Source: a virus
Lineage: Duplodnaviria > Caudoviricetes
DNA length: 35,748 bases
Virus record (IMG/VR): IMGVR_UViG_3300049381_000004
Span: 1 to 35,748 of that record
Direction: 5' to 3' (one strand)
A model generated the notes under the pieces. That model ran no database searches, was not told the origin of the DNA, and saw only the letters and a program-made list of their open reading frames with translations. Numbering within the stretch: the first letter of the stretch is position 1; each line of letters opens with the position of its first letter. The position numbers were made by a program, and so were the translations under genes. This document shows, one piece after another, positions 1,659 to 18,277 of this stretch.

Positions 1659-1942
1659 CCTCCGAATCCACCCGCGCCATCGCGGCCGACATCGCGCGGG
1701 AGTTCAAGGATCATCCGGAGCGGTGGAAGCAAGGATCATTCGGGTTCCGCGAGTCTGGCGGTGCATGTCTAGATCGGCATATCACTTCACGATGCAACGA
1801 TAGATGGGACGGTCTCGCGTCCGTTGTGTGCGCGCACATGGGATTTGCAAGCCGCATGGGTCTGTGGAATTGGAACGATGCTCCCGACCGGACGGTCCAC
1901 GACATCATCGCCCTCTGCGAGAAGGTGGCTGCCAATGGCTGA
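1655..1942 (+). CDS. Phage hypothetical protein, DUF6197-like
   Basis: WKQG...GACL and C-terminal WNDAPDRTVHDIIAL motif; ATGA overlap. Confidence 0.6.
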   Translation: MTSESTRAIAADIAREFKDHPERWKQGSFGFRESGGACLDRHITSRCNDRWDGLASVVCAHMGFASRMGLWNWNDAPDRTVHDIIALCEKVAANG

Positions 1943-2420
1943 GCAGACCAACATCAGCTGGTGCGACAGCAGTAAGTACAGGCCTGCTGAGTTCGGCCCG
2001 CCTGCGATGCCACCGCGTGACGGAGACGCCCAGCAGGCAAGGCAGCGCGTGAATGTTATGGTCCGCACTGGGAGGCTGGAGCATCCAAATGCCCTGCCCT
2101 GCGCAGACTGCGGTCATGTGTGGTCCGCTGGCGAGCGACGCCATGAATACGACCATCACCACGGATACTCCGCTGCTCATCACTATTGCGTAGAGCCGGT
2201 CTGCACAACCTGTCACGCCAAGCGTGACAACCCTCTCGCAACCAGAAAGCACTGCAAGATTGGCCACCCCCTGAGTGGAGAAAATCTCTATCTCGACCCT
2301 GATGGCCACCGTCACTGCCGGCAGTGTATGCGAGATCACGACAGGAAGCGCCCTCCTAGAGGCAGGGAGTATTGGCAACGAATCAATGCGAAGCGCAGGA
2401 AGGCGGTATCACATGGCTGA
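1935..2420 (+). CDS. HNH-type Zn-binding endonuclease carrying a DUF5131-like N-terminal peptide
   Basis: CADC...DHHHGY...VEPVCTTCH (HNH-like) plus HCKIGHPLSGENL...CRQC Zn domain; starts MAEQTNISWCDS. Confidence 0.75.
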   Translation: MAEQTNISWCDSSKYRPAEFGPPAMPPRDGDAQQARQRVNVMVRTGRLEHPNALPCADCGHVWSAGERRHEYDHHHGYSAAHHYCVEPVCTTCHAKRDNPLATRKHCKIGHPLSGENLYLDPDGHRHCRQCMRDHDRKRPPRGREYWQRINAKRRKAVSHG

Positions 2421-3231
2421 TAGAACAGCAATTTCTTGGTGCGATTCCACGCACAACCCCGTGGTGGGTTGCGAGCGCATCAGCCCGGCTTGTGATCACT
2501 GCTACGCCGCTGACTGGGCCAAACGCAGCGGCCAAGCAGAACTTTGGCAAGGCGAGCGCCGCCGCACCACCGAAGCGAACTGGCGCAAGCCGCTGCAGTG
2601 GGAGCGGGAGCACGAGACATTCTTTGCTGCGAACGGTCGGCGGCGGCGCGTGTTCTGCGCATCACTCGCGGACGTGTTCGACAACCAGTGGGATCCACAG
2701 TGGCGTGCCGATCTGTTTGCAATGATCAGAGCCACGCCGCACCTCATCTGGTTGCTATTGACCAAGAGAATTGGCAACGCCTCAAAGATGTTGCCGCCTG
2801 ATTGGGATGTTGGAACGGTCGGTGGATATCGGCACTATGCGTACCCCAACGTCTGGATCGGCGCTACCATCGCCAACCAGGACGAGGCCGACCGCGATAT
2901 ACCGAAGCTGCTGGCCACACCGGCGCGCGTGCGGTTTCTCTCGTGCGAGCCGCTGCTGGGTCCGATCGATCTGGACTGCTGGCCGGAGTCTGGCTGCTCA
3001 CGCAACTGGATCGACAGCGATCCCGGGATTGACTGGGTGATAGCCGGCGGCGAGAGCGGCGGCAAGGCGCGGCCGTCACACCCTGATTGGTTCAGGTCTC
3101 TTAAGCAGCAATGTTCAAGCGCTGGAGTTGCTTTCTTTATGAAACAAATGGGAGGCGCACGAGATAAGCGAGAAGATCTGCATTCGATTCCCGAAGACCT
3201 CAGAGTTAGGGAGTGGCCAGATGCGCGCTAA
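2413..3231 (+). CDS. DUF5131 (phage Gp37/Gp68 family, three-Cys motif) protein
   Basis: ISWCDSTHNPVVGCERISPACDHCYA, RVFCASLADVF, LLLTKR, NVWIG, RFLSCEPLLG, IDWVIAGGESG, FFMKQ. Confidence 0.95.
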   Translation: MADRTAISWCDSTHNPVVGCERISPACDHCYAADWAKRSGQAELWQGERRRTTEANWRKPLQWEREHETFFAANGRRRRVFCASLADVFDNQWDPQWRADLFAMIRATPHLIWLLLTKRIGNASKMLPPDWDVGTVGGYRHYAYPNVWIGATIANQDEADRDIPKLLATPARVRFLSCEPLLGPIDLDCWPESGCSRNWIDSDPGIDWVIAGGESGGKARPSHPDWFRSLKQQCSSAGVAFFMKQMGGARDKREDLHSIPEDLRVREWPDAR

Positions 3232-3706
3232 GATAGCGGTCAGCGACTACAATCGCAGATACCACATCGCGAATCGAGACAGGCTGCTGAAGAGAATGGC
3301 GCGGCTCAGAGCTAGTCGAAAGGCCGGTCCGTATGCGGTTGATTGGGCGGTTCAGAAGCTACTGAGCGATGCCAAGCGTCGCGCGAATCGCTACTCGATG
3401 GTGTTCGATTTGGATCTTCGCTCTATTCACAAGCCAACACATTGCCCGGTGTTCGGTTTTGAACTCGTATATCAGGCGTCTGGCAAGAGGCTGCCGAACA
3501 GCGCATCGCTTGATCGAATCGACAGCGGCAAGGGATACACCACGGACAACGTGTGGATAATCTCTTGGCGCGCAAATCAAGTAAAAACCGATGCCACCGC
3601 GGATGAACTAGAGACTGTCTGCGCCGCAATGCGCAAGAGATCCGCCGGCCGCACGCTCGACGGCGTGGTGCACGATGCGTTTCCTGACATAGGAGAATCA
3701 CGATGA
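3221..3706 (+). CDS. HNH-like (beta-beta-alpha-Me) endonuclease with DUF5131-like C-terminal tail
   Basis: HCPVFG...SASLDRIDSGKGYTTDNVWIISWRANQVK; ends KRSAGRTLDGVVHDAFP. Confidence 0.75.
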   Translation: MRAKIAVSDYNRRYHIANRDRLLKRMARLRASRKAGPYAVDWAVQKLLSDAKRRANRYSMVFDLDLRSIHKPTHCPVFGFELVYQASGKRLPNSASLDRIDSGKGYTTDNVWIISWRANQVKTDATADELETVCAAMRKRSAGRTLDGVVHDAFPDIGESR

Positions 3707-4317
3707 CAGTGAGCAACGAGCAGATCGAGGCGATACAAGCGGAGACGTACGCCGGGCTGACCAGCGAAGGCCAAGCTGCTCTCGCTATGCGTCACGTCGA
3801 AACGCTCCGCACCGCCCTCGCCGAGCGCGACGCCACCATCAAGCGCATCCAGTCCGCGGCGCTATCTCTGGCCGATGCCAACACGCGCGCCAGCAGTGCG
3901 CGTCTCGATGCGGCAAAGCGACTGGAGGCCGAATGCTCCCCTGAGCACGTCGAGTCGCAGCGCGCCGCCAATGAGCGGCTGACGAATGAGCTGGCCGAGC
4001 GCGACGCGGAGATTGAGCGGCTGACTGAGCGCCTGAAGGTCGTTGAAGACGAGAAGCTTGCAGCGCATGTAAGATTCAACAATGGGATATTGGAGCTTGA
4101 TGCGGAGATTGAGCGGCTGAAGCAAGAGCTGCAGACAAACCGCAATGCCCGAAACGCCCTCTACGCCGAGAATCGTCGGCTGAAAGAAGACGCCGCCCGA
4201 GCCGCCAACGCGAGGGATATCTGCGCGGCGGAGATCAGGGGGTTGAGGGAGAGGCTGGCAGATATCCCAACAGTTTACCGCTGCGATTCATGCGGCGGGT
4301 TGATCGACAAGAGGTGA
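3703..4317 (+). CDS. Coiled-coil accessory protein with internal DAEIERL repeats
   Basis: SD AGGAG, ATGA overlap, heptad-rich sequence, C-terminal CDSC. Confidence 0.75.
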   Translation: MTVSNEQIEAIQAETYAGLTSEGQAALAMRHVETLRTALAERDATIKRIQSAALSLADANTRASSARLDAAKRLEAECSPEHVESQRAANERLTNELAERDAEIERLTERLKVVEDEKLAAHVRFNNGILELDAEIERLKQELQTNRNARNALYAENRRLKEDAARAANARDICAAEIRGLRERLADIPTVYRCDSCGGLIDKR

Positions 4318-4321
4318 CGCC

Positions 4322-5017
4322 GTGAAGCGGTACGAAATCTACCGCAATCGAATGCAACTGACGCAGAAAGAAGCGGACAGAGGCGACTGGTGCCGCTTCG
4401 CTGACCACGAGGCCGACGTAGCAGGAAAGCTGCAAGGCCTGCAATCCCAGCTCGCGGCATCGCAGGCCGATGTCATAGCATTGCGCGAGGCCAACAAGCA
4501 GGCGCAGCGAGTGATCCTGGCGAATGAGCAAGCGGCATTGGCCTCGCAGGCGGAGGCGCGGAGGTTGCGAGAGGCGGTTATCAGTCTGAGACCTTGCCTT
4601 GAAACACTACGCCGTTGCAGCCGTGAGCTATTCCACCTCCGAGCGTTCCGTACTTCCGGTGACATCGACAAGGCAGCAGGGAAAGTTGAAAGCTGCTTAG
4701 CCGCCCTCGCCCCGCCGCAGCCAAAGGAGGCTCCCTACTACGTGCGCTCGTTCTGGTCGCCATGCCGCAAGTACATAGTCACCGCATGCGTGCCGAGCCC
4801 AGGGAGCGAGATCTGCATTGTCGATGACAACGGGGACCAATGGGAGCCGACTGGTCCTGTTGAAGACATGACTGAGTTCGCCAACAGGGCGCTGTCCCGA
4901 AAGAATGAGGCTGCCCAGCCGCAGGCGGAGCAGAAGGACGATCACGTCTACAGCACGCATGGATTTGACGGCAAGGGCGAAGATTGTCCGGGCTGTAAGG
5001 AGAGCGGCAATGGCTGA
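4322..5017 (+). CDS. Mosaic coiled-coil accessory protein (Ead/Ea22-like N-terminus)
   Basis: GAGG + GTG start; MKRY...GDWCRFADHEA motif; terminal CPGC. Confidence 0.7.
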   Translation: MKRYEIYRNRMQLTQKEADRGDWCRFADHEADVAGKLQGLQSQLAASQADVIALREANKQAQRVILANEQAALASQAEARRLREAVISLRPCLETLRRCSRELFHLRAFRTSGDIDKAAGKVESCLAALAPPQPKEAPYYVRSFWSPCRKYIVTACVPSPGSEICIVDDNGDQWEPTGPVEDMTEFANRALSRKNEAAQPQAEQKDDHVYSTHGFDGKGEDCPGCKESGNG

Positions 5018-5669
5018 ACTGAATTCATCGGATCGCTACGAGATCATCGCCGAGCTGTATCTCGGCCAGTTCGGCGAGTTAGCGCCCGGCAAGGATCGCC
5101 CACCGCTCTCAGGTATTCAGAGCGATGAGGAGCGAATAGCGAATAACGAGCGCTGGTCTGAATGGCTCACGCACCGGTTCAACCATCCATTGGAGCGGGC
5201 ACTGGAGAAGATCCACTGCATGCAGCACCAAGCGGAGCAGCGCGAGGAGTCATTGCGCGAAGCATCCGATGCGAAGGCCGAACTCCGCGCCCGCATCGCG
5301 CAGCAAGACGAGACTATCGCTGAGCTTCGCGCCCTGCTTTCTCTGTCGCAATCCAAGGTGCATGCCACTGAAATGGGCGAACGCTCGATGATTGCTCGAT
5401 GCGATGAACTGTTCGCTGACAACCGGAGCCTCACCTCCGCCAACGCCGAGTACGCCAAGCGGCACTTGGAGCAGGTGGAGACGGTGCGCACTCTCACCGC
5501 CGAGAACGCGGCGCTGCGGGCGGATCGCGATCGCATCGACTGGCAAGAGGCTAACGGCTCACGTGGCATGTATCGAATGCACAGCGGAAGTTGGTTTAGG
5601 CCGGGATTCGGCGAGTATCACTACTCCAGTTTCAGGGAAGCACTCGACGCAGCGCGAGGTGGGAAGTGA
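5010..5669 (+). CDS. Coiled-coil hypothetical protein
   Basis: AGGAG + ATG 5010; AENAALRADRDRIDW...FREALDAAR C-terminus typical of phage accessory proteins. Confidence 0.7.
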   Translation: MAELNSSDRYEIIAELYLGQFGELAPGKDRPPLSGIQSDEERIANNERWSEWLTHRFNHPLERALEKIHCMQHQAEQREESLREASDAKAELRARIAQQDETIAELRALLSLSQSKVHATEMGERSMIARCDELFADNRSLTSANAEYAKRHLEQVETVRTLTAENAALRADRDRIDWQEANGSRGMYRMHSGSWFRPGFGEYHYSSFREALDAARGGK

Positions 5670-7444: not shown

Positions 7445-7632
7445 GACAGCAGCCGAAGATCAAGCTGCAGGAGTGGGCGGCGCGAAGGTTCGAGCCGCCG
7501 CCGTGCCGGCGCACCCTTTACCGTTGGGTCAAGAACTCGCTGATCGAGCCACAGCCGACCCGCATCGGGCGCGAGTACTGGGTGGAGCGCGACGCGCACT
7601 GCGTCGACAGGAATGGCAATGTCACCTCGTAA
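7441..7632 (+). CDS. xis: Excisionase (lambda Xis-like winged helix)
   Basis: IKLQEWAARRFEPPPCRRTLYRWVKNSLIEPQPTRIGREYWVE; overlaps the int start as in lambda. Confidence 0.92.
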   Translation: MRQQPKIKLQEWAARRFEPPPCRRTLYRWVKNSLIEPQPTRIGREYWVERDAHCVDRNGNVTS

Positions 7633-8710
7633 GCGGCACTTCCGCAGCAACGGTCTTCCCGACAACCTCTCTCTGCGTGCAGACGGGTACTACGTCTACA
7701 CCAGCCCCATCAACAGGCACCAGAAGGGTCTGGGCCGTGATCGGCTCGCCGCAATCAAGTTCGCGCGCTCTGCCAACGTCGAGGTGCAGCGCATGCGTGG
7801 CGAGCTGGACGGTGCCGCATGGGTGCGCGGCGTCACGGCTCGCAGCTGGGGCGCGTGGCTCGATCGGTTCCAGGAGCTGCTCGACGAGAAGGACTCGACG
7901 AAGGCCACGCAGAACCAGCGCAAGTCTCTTATGAAGCGCGCCCGAGCGCAGTGGCCGGCGCAAATCGCAATCACAGAGATCAGCGTCGCCATGGTTGCCG
8001 ATGCCATCAGAGCGCTCACGAAAGATGGCAAGCCTACGATGGCGCAGGCCTACCGCTCCTTCCTCGGCAAGTGCTTCCGCTCTGCCATCGCCAACGGCTG
8101 GCGCCCAGACGATCCGACCGCGGTCACCGATGTGGTGATCGTGCGCACCAAGCGCGCCAGGCTCAGCATCGATCATGCGCGCGCAATCCTCGCAGATCCG
8201 CAGACCAAGCCATGGCTGCGCAACGCCATCGCCCTTGCACTGGTGACCGGTCAACGCCGGGAGGATATCGCGCGATCTCGACGCTCAGACGTGCGAGAGG
8301 GCTGCTGGTGGGTGCACCAGCGCAAGACCGGCAACCGGGTCGCGATCCCTACCAGCATCCGGTTGGATATCCTGGGCATGTCGCTCGCCGAGGTGCTGGA
8401 GCAATGCCGCAGCACCGGCATCCTGAGTCCCTACCTGATCCACCAGACCTTCGATCGTGACCGCGGGAAGCCGGTGGCGATTCGTGCGTTCACGAACATG
8501 TTCACGGCGTGCGTGAAGCGTCTGGGGATCGACTGGGGCGACAAGTCACCGCCGACGTTCCATGAGCTGCGCAGCCTTTCGAAGCGCCTGTACGACGCCC
8601 AGGGAGGCGTGGATACGAAGCAGTTGCTGGGGCATCGCAGCGATGGGGCGGCGGCGAAGTATGCTGACGCTCGCGGTGAGTGGGTGCGTGTCTCGGTACG
8701 CGTTGGGTAG
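7613..8710 (+). CDS. int: Lambda-type tyrosine integrase
   Basis: N-terminal arm-binding domain (LPDNL..GYYVY.SP...GLG); catalytic R (TGQRREDI), K (QRKTG), HxxR (FHELRSLS), H (LLGH), Y (KYADAR); start may be 7619. Confidence 0.97.
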   Translation: MAMSPRKRHFRSNGLPDNLSLRADGYYVYTSPINRHQKGLGRDRLAAIKFARSANVEVQRMRGELDGAAWVRGVTARSWGAWLDRFQELLDEKDSTKATQNQRKSLMKRARAQWPAQIAITEISVAMVADAIRALTKDGKPTMAQAYRSFLGKCFRSAIANGWRPDDPTAVTDVVIVRTKRARLSIDHARAILADPQTKPWLRNAIALALVTGQRREDIARSRRSDVREGCWWVHQRKTGNRVAIPTSIRLDILGMSLAEVLEQCRSTGILSPYLIHQTFDRDRGKPVAIRAFTNMFTACVKRLGIDWGDKSPPTFHELRSLSKRLYDAQGGVDTKQLLGHRSDGAAAKYADARGEWVRVSVRVG

Positions 8711-9712: not shown

Positions 9713-10150
9713 TTAAATTTCACTTCCCAGCTGGATGGAGGGTTGCAACGGATCCGGAGGGGCCGGTCTCAAGTGACTGTACCTTGCGGCCCCCGCTCTC
9801 CATCGTCCATTGCTCTTGCTGGCCTGGCGTCCCTTGGTTTTCATGTCCAGATTATTTTGCGCACATGTACCAAGCCACAAATGCTCGGGGTTTACACAGC
9901 TCTTTCGATCGCATTTGTGGCAAACGAAAATCCCTGGAGGTGGCCACTCTCCATGGGCCAAGTACCATGCCGCATGACCAGCCGACACCGTTTTTCCGCC
10001 GGCAATGATGCTGCCATACTCGCCGGAAGGTCCTGAAGGAATCCAGACCCAGCAGGTCGAGGTCTTTTGCACTTTCTCGAAGAAGCGCTTCTGAAGACTT
10101 GCATGCTGTTCCACATCAAGCGGAAGTCTCTTCACTCTGTACTTAGCCAT
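9713..10150 (-). CDS. HNH endonuclease (HNH_3-like)
   Basis: RFFEKV...CWVW...YG...VCHKCDRKSCVNPEHLWLGT..QNNLDM..KGR. Confidence 0.92.
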   Translation of the reverse strand: MAKYRVKRLPLDVEQHASLQKRFFEKVQKTSTCWVWIPSGPSGEYGSIIAGGKTVSAGHAAWYLAHGEWPPPGIFVCHKCDRKSCVNPEHLWLGTCAQNNLDMKTKGRQASKSNGRWRAGAARYSHLRPAPPDPLQPSIQLGSEI

Positions 10151-15013: not shown

Positions 15014-15176
15014 GGTCCGTCTGGCGCTGGGTCACTGGATCGGGGGCGGGTGATGCTCACAAGGCAAGTCCGTCTGGAGATTCGCGGCGGCGGGATTCGG
15101 GGATATATCGGTCATGCGTCATATCAGTTAGGATCTCATCCCCGCCTGCAAGGACGGCCCTGAAACCGGGTTGACA

Positions 15177-15818
15177 ATGAGCGCCAATCACTACGACGCA
15201 GCATATTTTCAGTGGCAAAGCAAGATCGGGGAGTTCGGGGGCTGGGCCAATGCGCCGCGGTTCGCCCAGCACATCAAGTCGACCGATACCGTGCTGGACT
15301 TCGGCTGCGGAGGCGGGTATCTGCTTGCTAACCTGCCGGGTGCGCGCAAGTACGGTATCGAGATCAACCCAGCGGCTCGAGCAGTGGCCGCGAGCAACGG
15401 TGCTATGGTCTACGAGTCGATTGCCGGCGTACCCGATAGCTCGTGCGACGTCATCGTTAGCAACCACTGCCTGGAGCACGTGCCCAATCCTCACGGGGCG
15501 CTCATCGAGCTGCGTGCCAAACTGAGACCCGGCGGCAAAGTCGTGTTCGTGGTGCCCTGCGAAAAGGCTTCGATGTACTGGGGCAGGCCGGACCATGACA
15601 ATCATCTCTACACCTTCACGCCGATGTGCCTTGGCAACCTGTTTACTGCGGCTGGCTACACGGTACTGAGTTCCGCCGTCGACCGATTCCGCTGGCCGCC
15701 GAAGTACCGGACCGTGGCCAGGCTGGGAGGCCGCACGGGCTGGGATCTTGCATGCAAAGTCTGGTACTACATCGACCATCGACATGCCTCTCAAGTGAGG
15801 CTCGTGGCGATCGCGTAG
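15177..15818 (+). CDS. Class I SAM-dependent methyltransferase (moron, opposite strand)
   Basis: VLDFGCGGG motif I, YGIEIN, CDVIVSNHCLEHVPNP, KLRPGGKVVFVVP. Confidence 0.92.
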   Translation: MSANHYDAAYFQWQSKIGEFGGWANAPRFAQHIKSTDTVLDFGCGGGYLLANLPGARKYGIEINPAARAVAASNGAMVYESIAGVPDSSCDVIVSNHCLEHVPNPHGALIELRAKLRPGGKVVFVVPCEKASMYWGRPDHDNHLYTFTPMCLGNLFTAAGYTVLSSAVDRFRWPPKYRTVARLGGRTGWDLACKVWYYIDHRHASQVRLVAIA

Positions 15819-15826
15819 CGAAATCA

Positions 15827-18100
15827 TCAGAGGTTGCCTCTGCTGACCCAGGTTCCGGGGCTGCCGGCTACTGTGCAGCGCCATCCTTTCGGGCTGCCCA
15901 CGGCTGGTACTGATTGCTCGGCCGAGTCTCCCACCGCTGCAGTACCGGTTGCCGGCGAAACGTTTGAAAAGAACGCGGTCTTAAGTCCGGTTGCGGCATT
16001 GATGATAGTGCCGTTGAAATTATTGGTCAGAGCGTAGTAACTGCCGGTACACGTTCCTGCGGTCGCTACTCCATTTGCCCCATTGGTGTTTCCGCTGTTG
16101 TTGGATATTAACGCTCTTGTGCAAGACGTAATGGAGAGTGCCGAGGCGGTATTTGCAGATCCGCAATTCCCTGTCACGCTCAAGCGATCGCACCCAGTCA
16201 GCTGCATCATGTTAGCAGCCGCGTCCGTGCGTAATTGATTGCCAGAGATCACGCAATCTGTATGGACAAAAGCCGCAGTTCTGTCGAACCTGAGTGCATT
16301 TCCTACGGACGCACGAAAGATATTTCCGTTGACGTTGATGCGATTCAAAGAGACGCTAGATGCGAAAGAGTTGAACGCATCAGCGGTGCCAAGTTGCAAC
16401 ACGACGTTCCCGGAAACATCGACATCGTCAGAGGAGAAAAGCCGAATTCCCTCGCCCGCGAATGCTGCGCCTCCAGGGCCGGTACCGTTGTTCTGCACAG
16501 GCATCCGAACGTTGTTGCCAGTCACGATCGCGCCACCGATGCATGTGCTCACTAATATCCCTGGGCATTGCGTCATCTCCTCCACAATGTTGTCGCAGAC
16601 AATTAGCTTGCTTGCGCCGACTACCGTGTCGTTTACAGATATTCCGGCTGGCCCATTGAGTGCGTTTGTTATTGAGATGCAGCAATTACGAACCACATTC
16701 GCGATAACTTTCTGTGCGCCAAGGCCTCGGCCAACACAATAAATGCCGGATCCTGCGAATATTCCGTTGCCAGTGATATTTTCAACGATGTTGCCACTTA
16801 CCTCGTTGTTGCCCTGCTGAGTTCCACCGATGTACACCGCTATGCCATAGCTTTTATGGTCGCGAACCCTGTTATTGATGACCTTGTTGTAACTAGGAAG
16901 AAAAGTCCCTATGCCACCCGGATCCTGAACGAGAATACCGTTGTCTACATTCAGTCCACCATAGCAACGATTTGAGGATATGTTGTTAAAAGAAGAGTTT
17001 CTATAGACAATGATATCACTTTTGTCGCCTGCTGCAGATGCCAGAAAGTCGTGGAAATAATTTCCAACAACGTCACAATTACTGCTGTTGTTTAGATATA
17101 CGCCTGCCCACTGCATGCCCTCAAATTCACAATTCAGTACCTGACAAAAACTGCATGCATCAAAGATGATGCCACCCACAGATGCAGCGTTGTTGGCCGT
17201 GGTTTGCTTAAACTTCCCGCTATCTATTCTGATATTCGTCTTACTGTTGGCGGAAAACAAATTTATCCCTGGCGTTGCTGTCTGAATAACCGCGCCCTTG
17301 GCGAACGTTATAGTCGAATTACTTTCAAGATTGATTTGCGCACTGATGATGGAGGTTCCGACTACCGGCCAGCTAAGATCTCCACCCAGACTTGCCCAGG
17401 CCTGGACCGCCCCCGTGTCATCTGTCACCCCGTCGATCGCAGCGCCATAGCGGCGTATGTCACGAGGCAAGAATGTGTAGTTGGTCGGCACGACTCCGGC
17501 CACAAACTCCTCGACGGTGATCATGTGCTCAGGGCCAAGCGCTGGGCCTTGCAGTTGCCATGTCAGACCATCGTAGATGGCCTCGTACATGCCATCGACC
17601 TGCAGCGCGCCGGCAGACACAGATTCGCGGTTTTGCCACAGCAGGGATTTCGACAGTCCACCATTGATCGTGATCGTGACTGGCCCGGTATTCTGCAGGT
17701 TGGACTTCCACACAATCCGATCAAACAACTGCGGCGTGCCCGACAACCGCGGGATGTCCAGCTGCACCGAATTGCCGCTGCCGGTGTCCTCGGCCGCATT
17801 GTCCGAACTCGGCGGTCCCGCAGTGATGTCATCGACCGTCCAGATAGGCGCAGTGGGCGGGTCAGTGTCATTGGCTGGCGCCAGCACAAACTTGTATGCA
17901 AGCGTCGGGTCCAGCCAGACGCGCGCCTCACCCCTGAAATTGAGTATGATGGGGTTGCTGTTGAGCGATACACCCGCCGACTCCTGCCAGGTCGAAACCT
18001 TGGTCGTGGTCCCAGCTGCATAAATGAACAGCAAGCCGGCGACGAGCGGACGCCCGTCGTTGTCAAAAAACTTCTGCAGCGGCAAGGGCGATAGATTCAA
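15827..18100 (-). CDS. Tailspike / depolymerase: particle-binding N-terminus + right-handed beta-helix
   Basis: GGAG + TTG 18100; FFDNDGRPL..G.L..Y.AGTTT...NPIIL..RGEA.VWL N-domain; DIRRYGA..DGVTDDT.A; Asn/Gly-rich helix rungs. Confidence 0.92.
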   Translation of the reverse strand: MNLSPLPLQKFFDNDGRPLVAGLLFIYAAGTTTKVSTWQESAGVSLNSNPIILNFRGEARVWLDPTLAYKFVLAPANDTDPPTAPIWTVDDITAGPPSSDNAAEDTGSGNSVQLDIPRLSGTPQLFDRIVWKSNLQNTGPVTITINGGLSKSLLWQNRESVSAGALQVDGMYEAIYDGLTWQLQGPALGPEHMITVEEFVAGVVPTNYTFLPRDIRRYGAAIDGVTDDTGAVQAWASLGGDLSWPVVGTSIISAQINLESNSTITFAKGAVIQTATPGINLFSANSKTNIRIDSGKFKQTTANNAASVGGIIFDACSFCQVLNCEFEGMQWAGVYLNNSSNCDVVGNYFHDFLASAAGDKSDIIVYRNSSFNNISSNRCYGGLNVDNGILVQDPGGIGTFLPSYNKVINNRVRDHKSYGIAVYIGGTQQGNNEVSGNIVENITGNGIFAGSGIYCVGRGLGAQKVIANVVRNCCISITNALNGPAGISVNDTVVGASKLIVCDNIVEEMTQCPGILVSTCIGGAIVTGNNVRMPVQNNGTGPGGAAFAGEGIRLFSSDDVDVSGNVVLQLGTADAFNSFASSVSLNRINVNGNIFRASVGNALRFDRTAAFVHTDCVISGNQLRTDAAANMMQLTGCDRLSVTGNCGSANTASALSITSCTRALISNNSGNTNGANGVATAGTCTGSYYALTNNFNGTIINAATGLKTAFFSNVSPATGTAAVGDSAEQSVPAVGSPKGWRCTVAGSPGTWVSRGNL

Positions 18101-18109
18101 AGGATCTCC

Positions 18110-18277
18110 ATGCAAGACTCAGCGCCGCTGCGTGCGGCAATTGTTGCGGTGACGGTCATGACGGTGAAGGAATTCATCTGGCCGTTAATCCTCGTCCTCT
18201 GGCGCCGCGGCACCCGCGCCGCGCGACAGAAGATCAGTGATGCGCGCCTGCCGAGCCGATGGCGGGGGCCGTCGTAG
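18110..18277 (+). CDS. Small antisense membrane protein (55 aa), overlapping the 3' end of the ejection gene
   Basis: AAGGA + ATG; MQDSAPLRAAIVAVTVMTVKEFIWPLILVLWRRG...; below the ORF-track cutoff. Confidence 0.45.
   Translation: MQDSAPLRAAIVAVTVMTVKEFIWPLILVLWRRGTRAARQKISDARLPSRWRGPS

Follow-up and report, generated by a model that had tools for sequence, protein, structure and literature searches.

A DUF5131 gene with a foreign C-terminus and a predicted PacI-like nuclease that ends in DUF5131 codons: a probable case of homing without an intron

Endonuclease genes that exchange the end of their host gene are known from fungal mitochondria, where they have been called mORFs. In atp6 of Allomyces macrogynus and in atp6, atp9, cox2 and nad3 of Glomus, a foreign C-terminus and an endonuclease ORF (LAGLIDADG or GIY-YIG) are found in the gene, with the native C-terminus left downstream and no splicing; according to the passages of that paper that were searched, the endonuclease has been shown to drive mobility (PMC3630166). 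Related phage systems have been described. The seg and mob nucleases of T4 lie outside introns and inteins, cut a neighbouring gene, co-convert its flanks and have no promoter of their own in an operon; the searched text describes them as intergenic (PMC2988022). ICP1-like HEG-islands contain essential genes or operons with an endonuclease gene on either side; these endonuclease genes belong to different classes and are interchangeable, and terminus capture is absent from the passages searched (PMC10448857). In the ShiLan element of actinobacteriophage methylases, an endonuclease has homed into a phage gene without recognised splicing, as an internal out-of-frame insertion that is read through in the host frame, with no terminus replacement in the text covered (PMC11855218). 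Literature listings, which cover few subscription journals, returned no phage terminus capture and no study of DUF5131 nucleases.

The locus described here is part of a 35.7-kb virus record (35,748 nucleotides), the whole of which was analysed and is called the window. It has the mORF layout: the host core continues in frame into a foreign C-terminus, which is followed by a nuclease and then by the native C-terminus. The principle is thus already published for fungal mitochondria, in the passages cited above, and the cassette of the window works like the mORF type without being a member of it, as the host is a virus rather than a mitochondrion and the enzyme is a predicted His-Me finger nuclease. 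Unlike in mORFs, the host gene is an accessory gene of a phage, and its old tail has lost the middle part. What remains of the tail is joined in frame to the end of the nuclease, where it holds the start signal of the next gene; moreover, PacI-like, HNH_3 and LAGLIDADG-like enzymes are found at one site, and there is a 5' mirror form. With seg and mob the cassette shares its place in an operon outside any intron and, by inference, cutting and co-conversion, but it lies inside the coding end of the host gene and exchanges termini. The flanking of one gene by two endonucleases recalls the HEG-islands.

The window contains an integrase gene (7613-8710), and the genes of its early region are small and overlap. 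A NADAR-domain gene is also found in the early region (1167-1658; Pfam E 1.5e-28). On the late strand, we take the minus-strand ORF at 9713-10150, which has a CHKCDRKSCVNPEHL motif, to be another HNH-like gene; the minus-strand ORF at 15171-15818 is presumably methyltransferase-like, and the repeat-rich long gene adjoining it (15827-18115, minus strand) presumably encodes a tailspike-like protein, to judge from the appearance of the sequences. All features discussed below are on the plus strand. The DUF5131 gene (2413-3231; Pfam PF07505, E 5e-78; protein end FFMKQMGG...IPEDLRVREWPDAR) is flanked by two ORFs of 161 residues, 1935-2420 (P0003) and 3221-3706 (P0002), both of which are endonucleases according to PHROGs. 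DUF5131, also known as Gp37/Gp68, is placed among radical SAM clusters in a published table. P0002 overlaps the DUF5131 gene by 11 nt, matches PHROG 3322 'endonuclease' with E 4e-30 and ends in KRSAGRTLDGVVHDAFPDIGESR. No Pfam family was found for P0002 or P0003. Scans of 1800-3900 gave no promoter or terminator match, and a comparison of 1800-4000 with Rfam was blank at E<=1. As the host ORF is complete with its own stop and no RNA family was recognised, the locus is not read as an intron or intein.

DUF5131 proteins have two main types of C-terminus, long (..KQWGEW..variable..KKAAGR.LDG..H..FP) and short (..FMKQM..P.DL.VREFP). By regular expression, 92 of the 120 core relatives listed, the window's own copy included, are long, 23 are short and five have another end. 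The window's gene is of the short type, and its core (2413-3078) passes into what appears to be a foreign, cassette-borne end (3079-3231, with an approximate 5' boundary at 3079-3100). The earlier note on this DNA had described AT-rich codons from about 3080, and this is borne out: GC3 drops from 147/206 (0.71) in the core to 18/46 (0.39) in 3079-3228 (Fisher p 6e-5, with the boundary at 3079 chosen by eye), and none of 1584 overlapping 46-codon stretches from 15 early-region coding stretches is as low. The same note saw GC-rich codons resuming at 3641. In the window alone, this recovery is not significant (13/17 against 80/133, p 0.29); it becomes so when the 3' junctions of seven loci are pooled (Mantel-Haenszel odds ratio 2.0, p 0.0005).

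In a FastTree tree of 148 DUF5131 cores with tails left out, the window's core groups with four long-tailed alleles (P0104-P0107; 75-78% identity, support 100). The seven cores that carry the cassette, one of which (P0115) is a putative member, are as scattered over the tree as shuffled labels and require seven changes, six of them forced by well-supported branches. P0115 is nested among other long alleles. It is probably on one contig with the nuclease P0005, given the equal contig sizes (2201), the source and a compatible overlap; compared with this pair, the window is 66% identical in the core, 85% in the new tail and 77% in the nuclease. The GRTL variant of the long tail, which is the one found on the nuclease, occurs in all five of the closest cores against 11/78 overall. 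Tail and core similarity are correlated significantly in one of three cases (rho 0.46 for L133, 0.09 for the window, -0.16 for P0115).

The codons for RDQC are present in 80/88 long alleles, in 6/23 other short alleles and in none of the eight alleles with the PacI-like cassette; most alleles with an HNH_3 cassette (see below) keep them. From this pattern, the RDQC codons are a candidate for the nuclease target, and the SLKQQC codons of the window (3097-3114), which stand where long alleles have SLRDQC, may be an altered, immune version.

The body of P0002 (3221-3631) is predicted to be a PacI-like His-Me finger nuclease rather than DRID-type, the label given to it earlier. PacI is the top phmmer match (E 0.84, weak), the top Foldseek match of the model (pLDDT 85; E 0.012, weak) and the top match by VIA-align (Z 7.3, rmsd 2.8, 84 aligned), which is weak alone but has matching residues in the alignment. 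D98, R99, Y106, N110 and N119 are invariant in 33/33 aligned sequences and line up with PacI residues, and 96 of 100 homologues have an intact DR..GY...N..AN motif. PacI belongs to group 20 of the His-Me fingers, which have a beta-beta-alpha-metal fold, and its active-site pattern is DR..GY...N...N, in which Tyr replaces the catalytic His. It is a restriction enzyme, a rare cutter that has no accompanying methylase; in the text covered, its viral homologues are suggested to be restrictases (PMC5714182). It differs from the window's nuclease in being a known restriction enzyme, and the two are only ~17% identical.

The C-terminus of P0002 is a different matter. A custom HMM built from 83 long-type DUF5131 tails matches residues 138-156 with 35.9 bits (E 2e-11), the runner-up among 912 six-frame ORFs of the window scoring 7.8 bits. 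The earlier claim that the nuclease ends in a DUF5131 C-terminus is therefore upheld with this profile, although the Pfam DUF5131 model, by which it was to be checked, has no match in the last 42 residues at E<=10, and PHROG 2045 reaches E 0.028 only. This stretch (3632-3706, RKRSAGRTLDGVVHDAFPD...) likely represents the original last 17-20 codons of the DUF5131 gene, fused in frame to the nuclease. Beyond residue 130 the model has low pLDDT (42-68). Captured tails have host-like codon use; they are recognisable on nucleases that share as little as 42-57% identity, and they differ distally between the near-identical nucleases P0002 and P0004. Both ends appear to carry signals for translation. 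The foreign tail supplies AGGGAG (3208-3213), seven bases ahead of the nuclease ATG and in the position of a Shine-Dalgarno sequence, while the captured tail holds AGGAG and an ATGA stop/start overlap (3691-3706) that would couple it to the next gene, a coiled-coil gene of 204 residues (3703-4317; GC3 0.74).

Within the nuclease family, sampled as P0002 plus 99 homologues, 27 of the 38 closest homologues have the tail; none of the 62 distant ones does, and these score at most -2.5 bits. All tailed rows fall within a single clade of 37 (support 87) in a FastTree tree of 95 nuclease bodies (100 columns), and about ten members of the tailed clade have a truncated or absent tail. Matches to the nuclease were found at 172 loci, 15 of which also have DUF5131; two of these are the window itself, and one (L025) was dropped as spurious, a weak match to an upstream HNH gene. 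There are seven distinct tailed loci (the window, L133, L134, L135/6, L137, L138, which is the same as L040, and L139-143), and in 7/7 with upstream DNA a short DUF5131 end overlaps the start of the nuclease. The earlier note had reasoned that the same tail on homologues in other contexts would speak against capture; among loci with no DUF5131 in the fetched DNA, many of them on short contigs, 156/157 are tail-less and the exception, L157, lacks upstream DNA. One tailed locus has no DUF5131 core: in L134 (1028-1772), a 60-residue short-tail remnant, the nuclease and the long tail adjoin what we assume to be a toxin-antitoxin-like pair and apparently chromosomal genes.

Two pattern scans of viral DNA for further loci returned the L040 contig only. 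GTDB genomes gave three loci and plasmids two partial matches, none of them tailed as far as covered. When 1.84 billion entries were searched with the tail, 93 of the best 150 matches were DUF5131 proteins or fragments of them by HMM or motif, and no nuclease was recognised among the remaining 57 non-DUF5131 or fragmentary rows; the profile favours the native context. In four proteins (P0395, P0427, P0455 and P0491), the start of a non-nuclease phage gene is fused to a long DUF5131 tail, apparently as a result of deletions.

Nucleases of other families are found in the same slot. Four of 46 DUF5131-seeded viral loci have a tailed gene directly downstream, and all four genes are nucleases: one belongs to the PacI-like family (L040) and three are HNH_3 enzymes (L034, L036, L042), which have the tail alone in common with it. 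Among 80 HNH_3 loci, the tail is present at 12, each of them next to DUF5131, and 60 have neither tail nor DUF5131. The other eight adjoin DUF5131 without a match to the tail HMM, and three of these nucleases (L241, L245, L246) have, by eye, a tail of the short type instead (..EDLRVRQWP, ..RVREWP), which suggests that alleles already converted have been invaded again. A third family is represented by LAGLIDADG-like ORFs in the mycobacteriophages Estave1 (gp69, NC_026585.1; L302 2851-3360) and Karhdo (gp63; L305 1602-2111), which are annotated as HNH or hypothetical. They lie in this slot too, again with an overlap of 11 nt, and end in a captured DUF5131 tail (AGRELDGRTWDQYPE.NA); the match to Pfam LAGLIDADG_3 (E 0.039) is below the family cut-off. 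Since three unrelated nuclease families have this layout, DUF5131 likely serves as a common landing site for selfish genes whose spread involves no splicing.

The LAGLIDADG-like case comes with an empty allele, gp66 of TChen. For 118 nt, as far as the DUF5131 FLFK(Q) codons, Karhdo and TChen share 96.6% identity; 545 nt of Karhdo then stand in place of 154 nt of TChen, and homology returns at the AGRELDG codons and continues into the shared next gene. This is a replacement, in which the middle of the old tail has been lost and its last 17-20 codons kept. The simple displacement of the native end proposed in the earlier note needs to be amended in this respect; its placing of that end on the nuclease stands. 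An HNH_3 locus (L229) shows the same pattern when compared with phiBt-TXDOH (92% over 63 nt at the tail). Filled and empty alleles are thus distributed patchily, at the protein level for the PacI-like family and at the DNA level for the HNH_3 and LAGLIDADG-like families only. The comparison with empty alleles suggested earlier therefore succeeded for these two families, and no close empty allele at the DNA level was found for the window or the PacI-like family. The filled allele of the window is present in pieces in four sequence runs. An X4 contig joining 3060 to 3645 was rejected as an empty allele: it has 20 letters on the short side, matching at 85%, and is probably another organism's DUF5131.

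At the 5' end of the DUF5131 gene there is a mirror image of this arrangement. P0003 (1935-2420; PHROG HNH, E 1e-7) starts with MAEQTNISWCDS, and its first ~12 codons correspond to a DUF5131 N-terminus (26.8 bits with an N-terminus HMM). The TNISWC of this start is shared with the four closest cores of the window and with 11/119 overall, whereas the window's DUF5131 now starts MADRTAISWC, with seven codons ending in A or T; its first ~8 codons, which are AT-rich, are likely a replacement N-terminus. This agrees with the earlier view that the gene is bracketed by endonucleases that replace its termini. Among 121 members of the 5' family that were examined (P0003 and 120 of the 462 matches listed), 60 begin with the N-terminal residues of DUF5131, in varying number (>8 bits). 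Three of the members examined (P0232, P0299, P0307) have a DUF5131 N-terminus at their start and a long C-terminus at their end, as if the nuclease had replaced the whole body of the DUF5131 gene. An exact-pattern scan for the window's 5' junction returned 0 viral stretches. In another virus (L034, IMGVR_UViG_3300007351_000031, 2363-5211), DUF5131 is independently bracketed by a 5' HNH-AP2 gene, whose product starts with a DUF5131 N-terminus (MTKIEWAHAGL), and a 3' HNH_3 gene with a long tail. HNH-type genes are also located directly upstream of DUF5131 in L025 (~2370-3005; Pfam HNH E 1.5e-5) and L033 (upstream of 3001; motif only).

We consider it probable that a cassette consisting of a foreign DUF5131 ending and the predicted PacI-like nuclease replaced most of the gene's own ending, became fused to the last 17-20 codons and spreads by intronless homing. 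What the sequences show directly is the layout, how often it recurs, the scatter of cassette-bearing cores over the DUF5131 tree and the filled/empty DNA pairs of the two other families; homing itself, meaning cleavage and biased inheritance, is a likely reading of them. During co-infection, or recombination between prophage and phage, the nuclease would cut a long-type allele that lacks the cassette, close to the HPDW..SLRDQC codons. In the repair that follows, the conserved core would serve as the upstream arm and the captured tail of ~55 nt as the downstream arm; as the neighbouring genes are mosaic, no other homology would be available. The foreign tail would restore a complete DUF5131 protein, alter the target and supply the start signal of the nuclease. 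With the crossover inside the tail, the nuclease would receive the recipient's last codons, and the ribosome-binding site of the next gene would be kept. Each nuclease family would need one illegitimate recombination for its initial capture, and later moves would be homologous.

The strongest competitor, which we nevertheless regard as unlikely, is that the cassette is a neutral mosaic module, created by one illegitimate recombination per family and passed on by ordinary recombination between conserved motifs, with the tail kept only for its ribosome-binding site. The AGGAG and ATGA overlap in the tail would fit this idea. Many short tails have no nuclease after them, and they are dispersed over the core tree (25 changes), so tails swap anyway, long for short and often with no known nuclease; the cores closest to those of L138 and L139 also have short tails, several with HNH_3 cassettes, in a sample seeded partly with short-tail peptide. 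Genes other than nucleases gain the tail too: besides the apparent deletion fusions, a 259-residue gene after the HNH_3 gene of L034 (4432-5211), which has no Pfam match, also ends in LDGVEHSEFPEAR. However, the slot directly after a complete short allele held three unrelated nuclease families and no non-nuclease, and the catalytic residues are invariant. Retention of ~17-20 codons also exceeds the ~5 that would hold the binding site, and RDQC is missing from all PacI-like cassette alleles, yet retained in most of those with HNH_3. Much less likely still, the nuclease could be retained because the phage gains from it, for instance if it cuts rival phages, satellites or the DNA of the host; DUF5131 would then be just a convenient site for co-expression. 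The restriction activity of PacI and the role suggested for its viral homologues speak for such a function, which would be compatible with homing, but it leaves unexplained both the clade-wide tie to DUF5131 ends and the convergence of unrelated folds. We give hardly any weight to the fused tail being part of the nuclease fold or a peptide whose function is to bind, in trans, to DUF5131 or to a partner: its persistence on divergent nucleases would agree with this, but tails differ between sister nucleases, are shortened or lost in some members of the clade, belong in some HNH_3 cases to the short type, have host-like codon use and are modelled with low pLDDT.

Returning to homing, a broader version is possible, though we hold it only tentatively and at slightly less than even chances: DUF5131 may be a general hub for splicing-free homing in temperate phages, from those of Proteobacteria to those of Actinobacteria, with its tail polymorphism largely the scar. 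At least five unrelated nuclease types would be involved, PacI-like, HNH_3 and LAGLIDADG-like at the 3' end and the P0003 family and HNH-AP2 at the 5' end. Each type would carry a replacement gene end and use the captured terminal 10-20 codons of the host as a homology arm that is refreshed with every move.

If the proposed mechanism is correct, a selfish nuclease can home in mosaic phage regions, where neighbouring genes offer no homology, and needs neither intron nor intein for this, by wearing the end of its host gene. Its signature would be a nuclease that ends or starts with the terminus of a host gene, and this signature would predict the target of unannotated phage nucleases. Karhdo or Estave1 versus TChen in M. 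smegmatis provides a laboratory-ready test pair. PacI-like nucleases with a catalytic Tyr would join the homing families, and the termini of DUF5131 would be misleading for both annotation and phylogeny.
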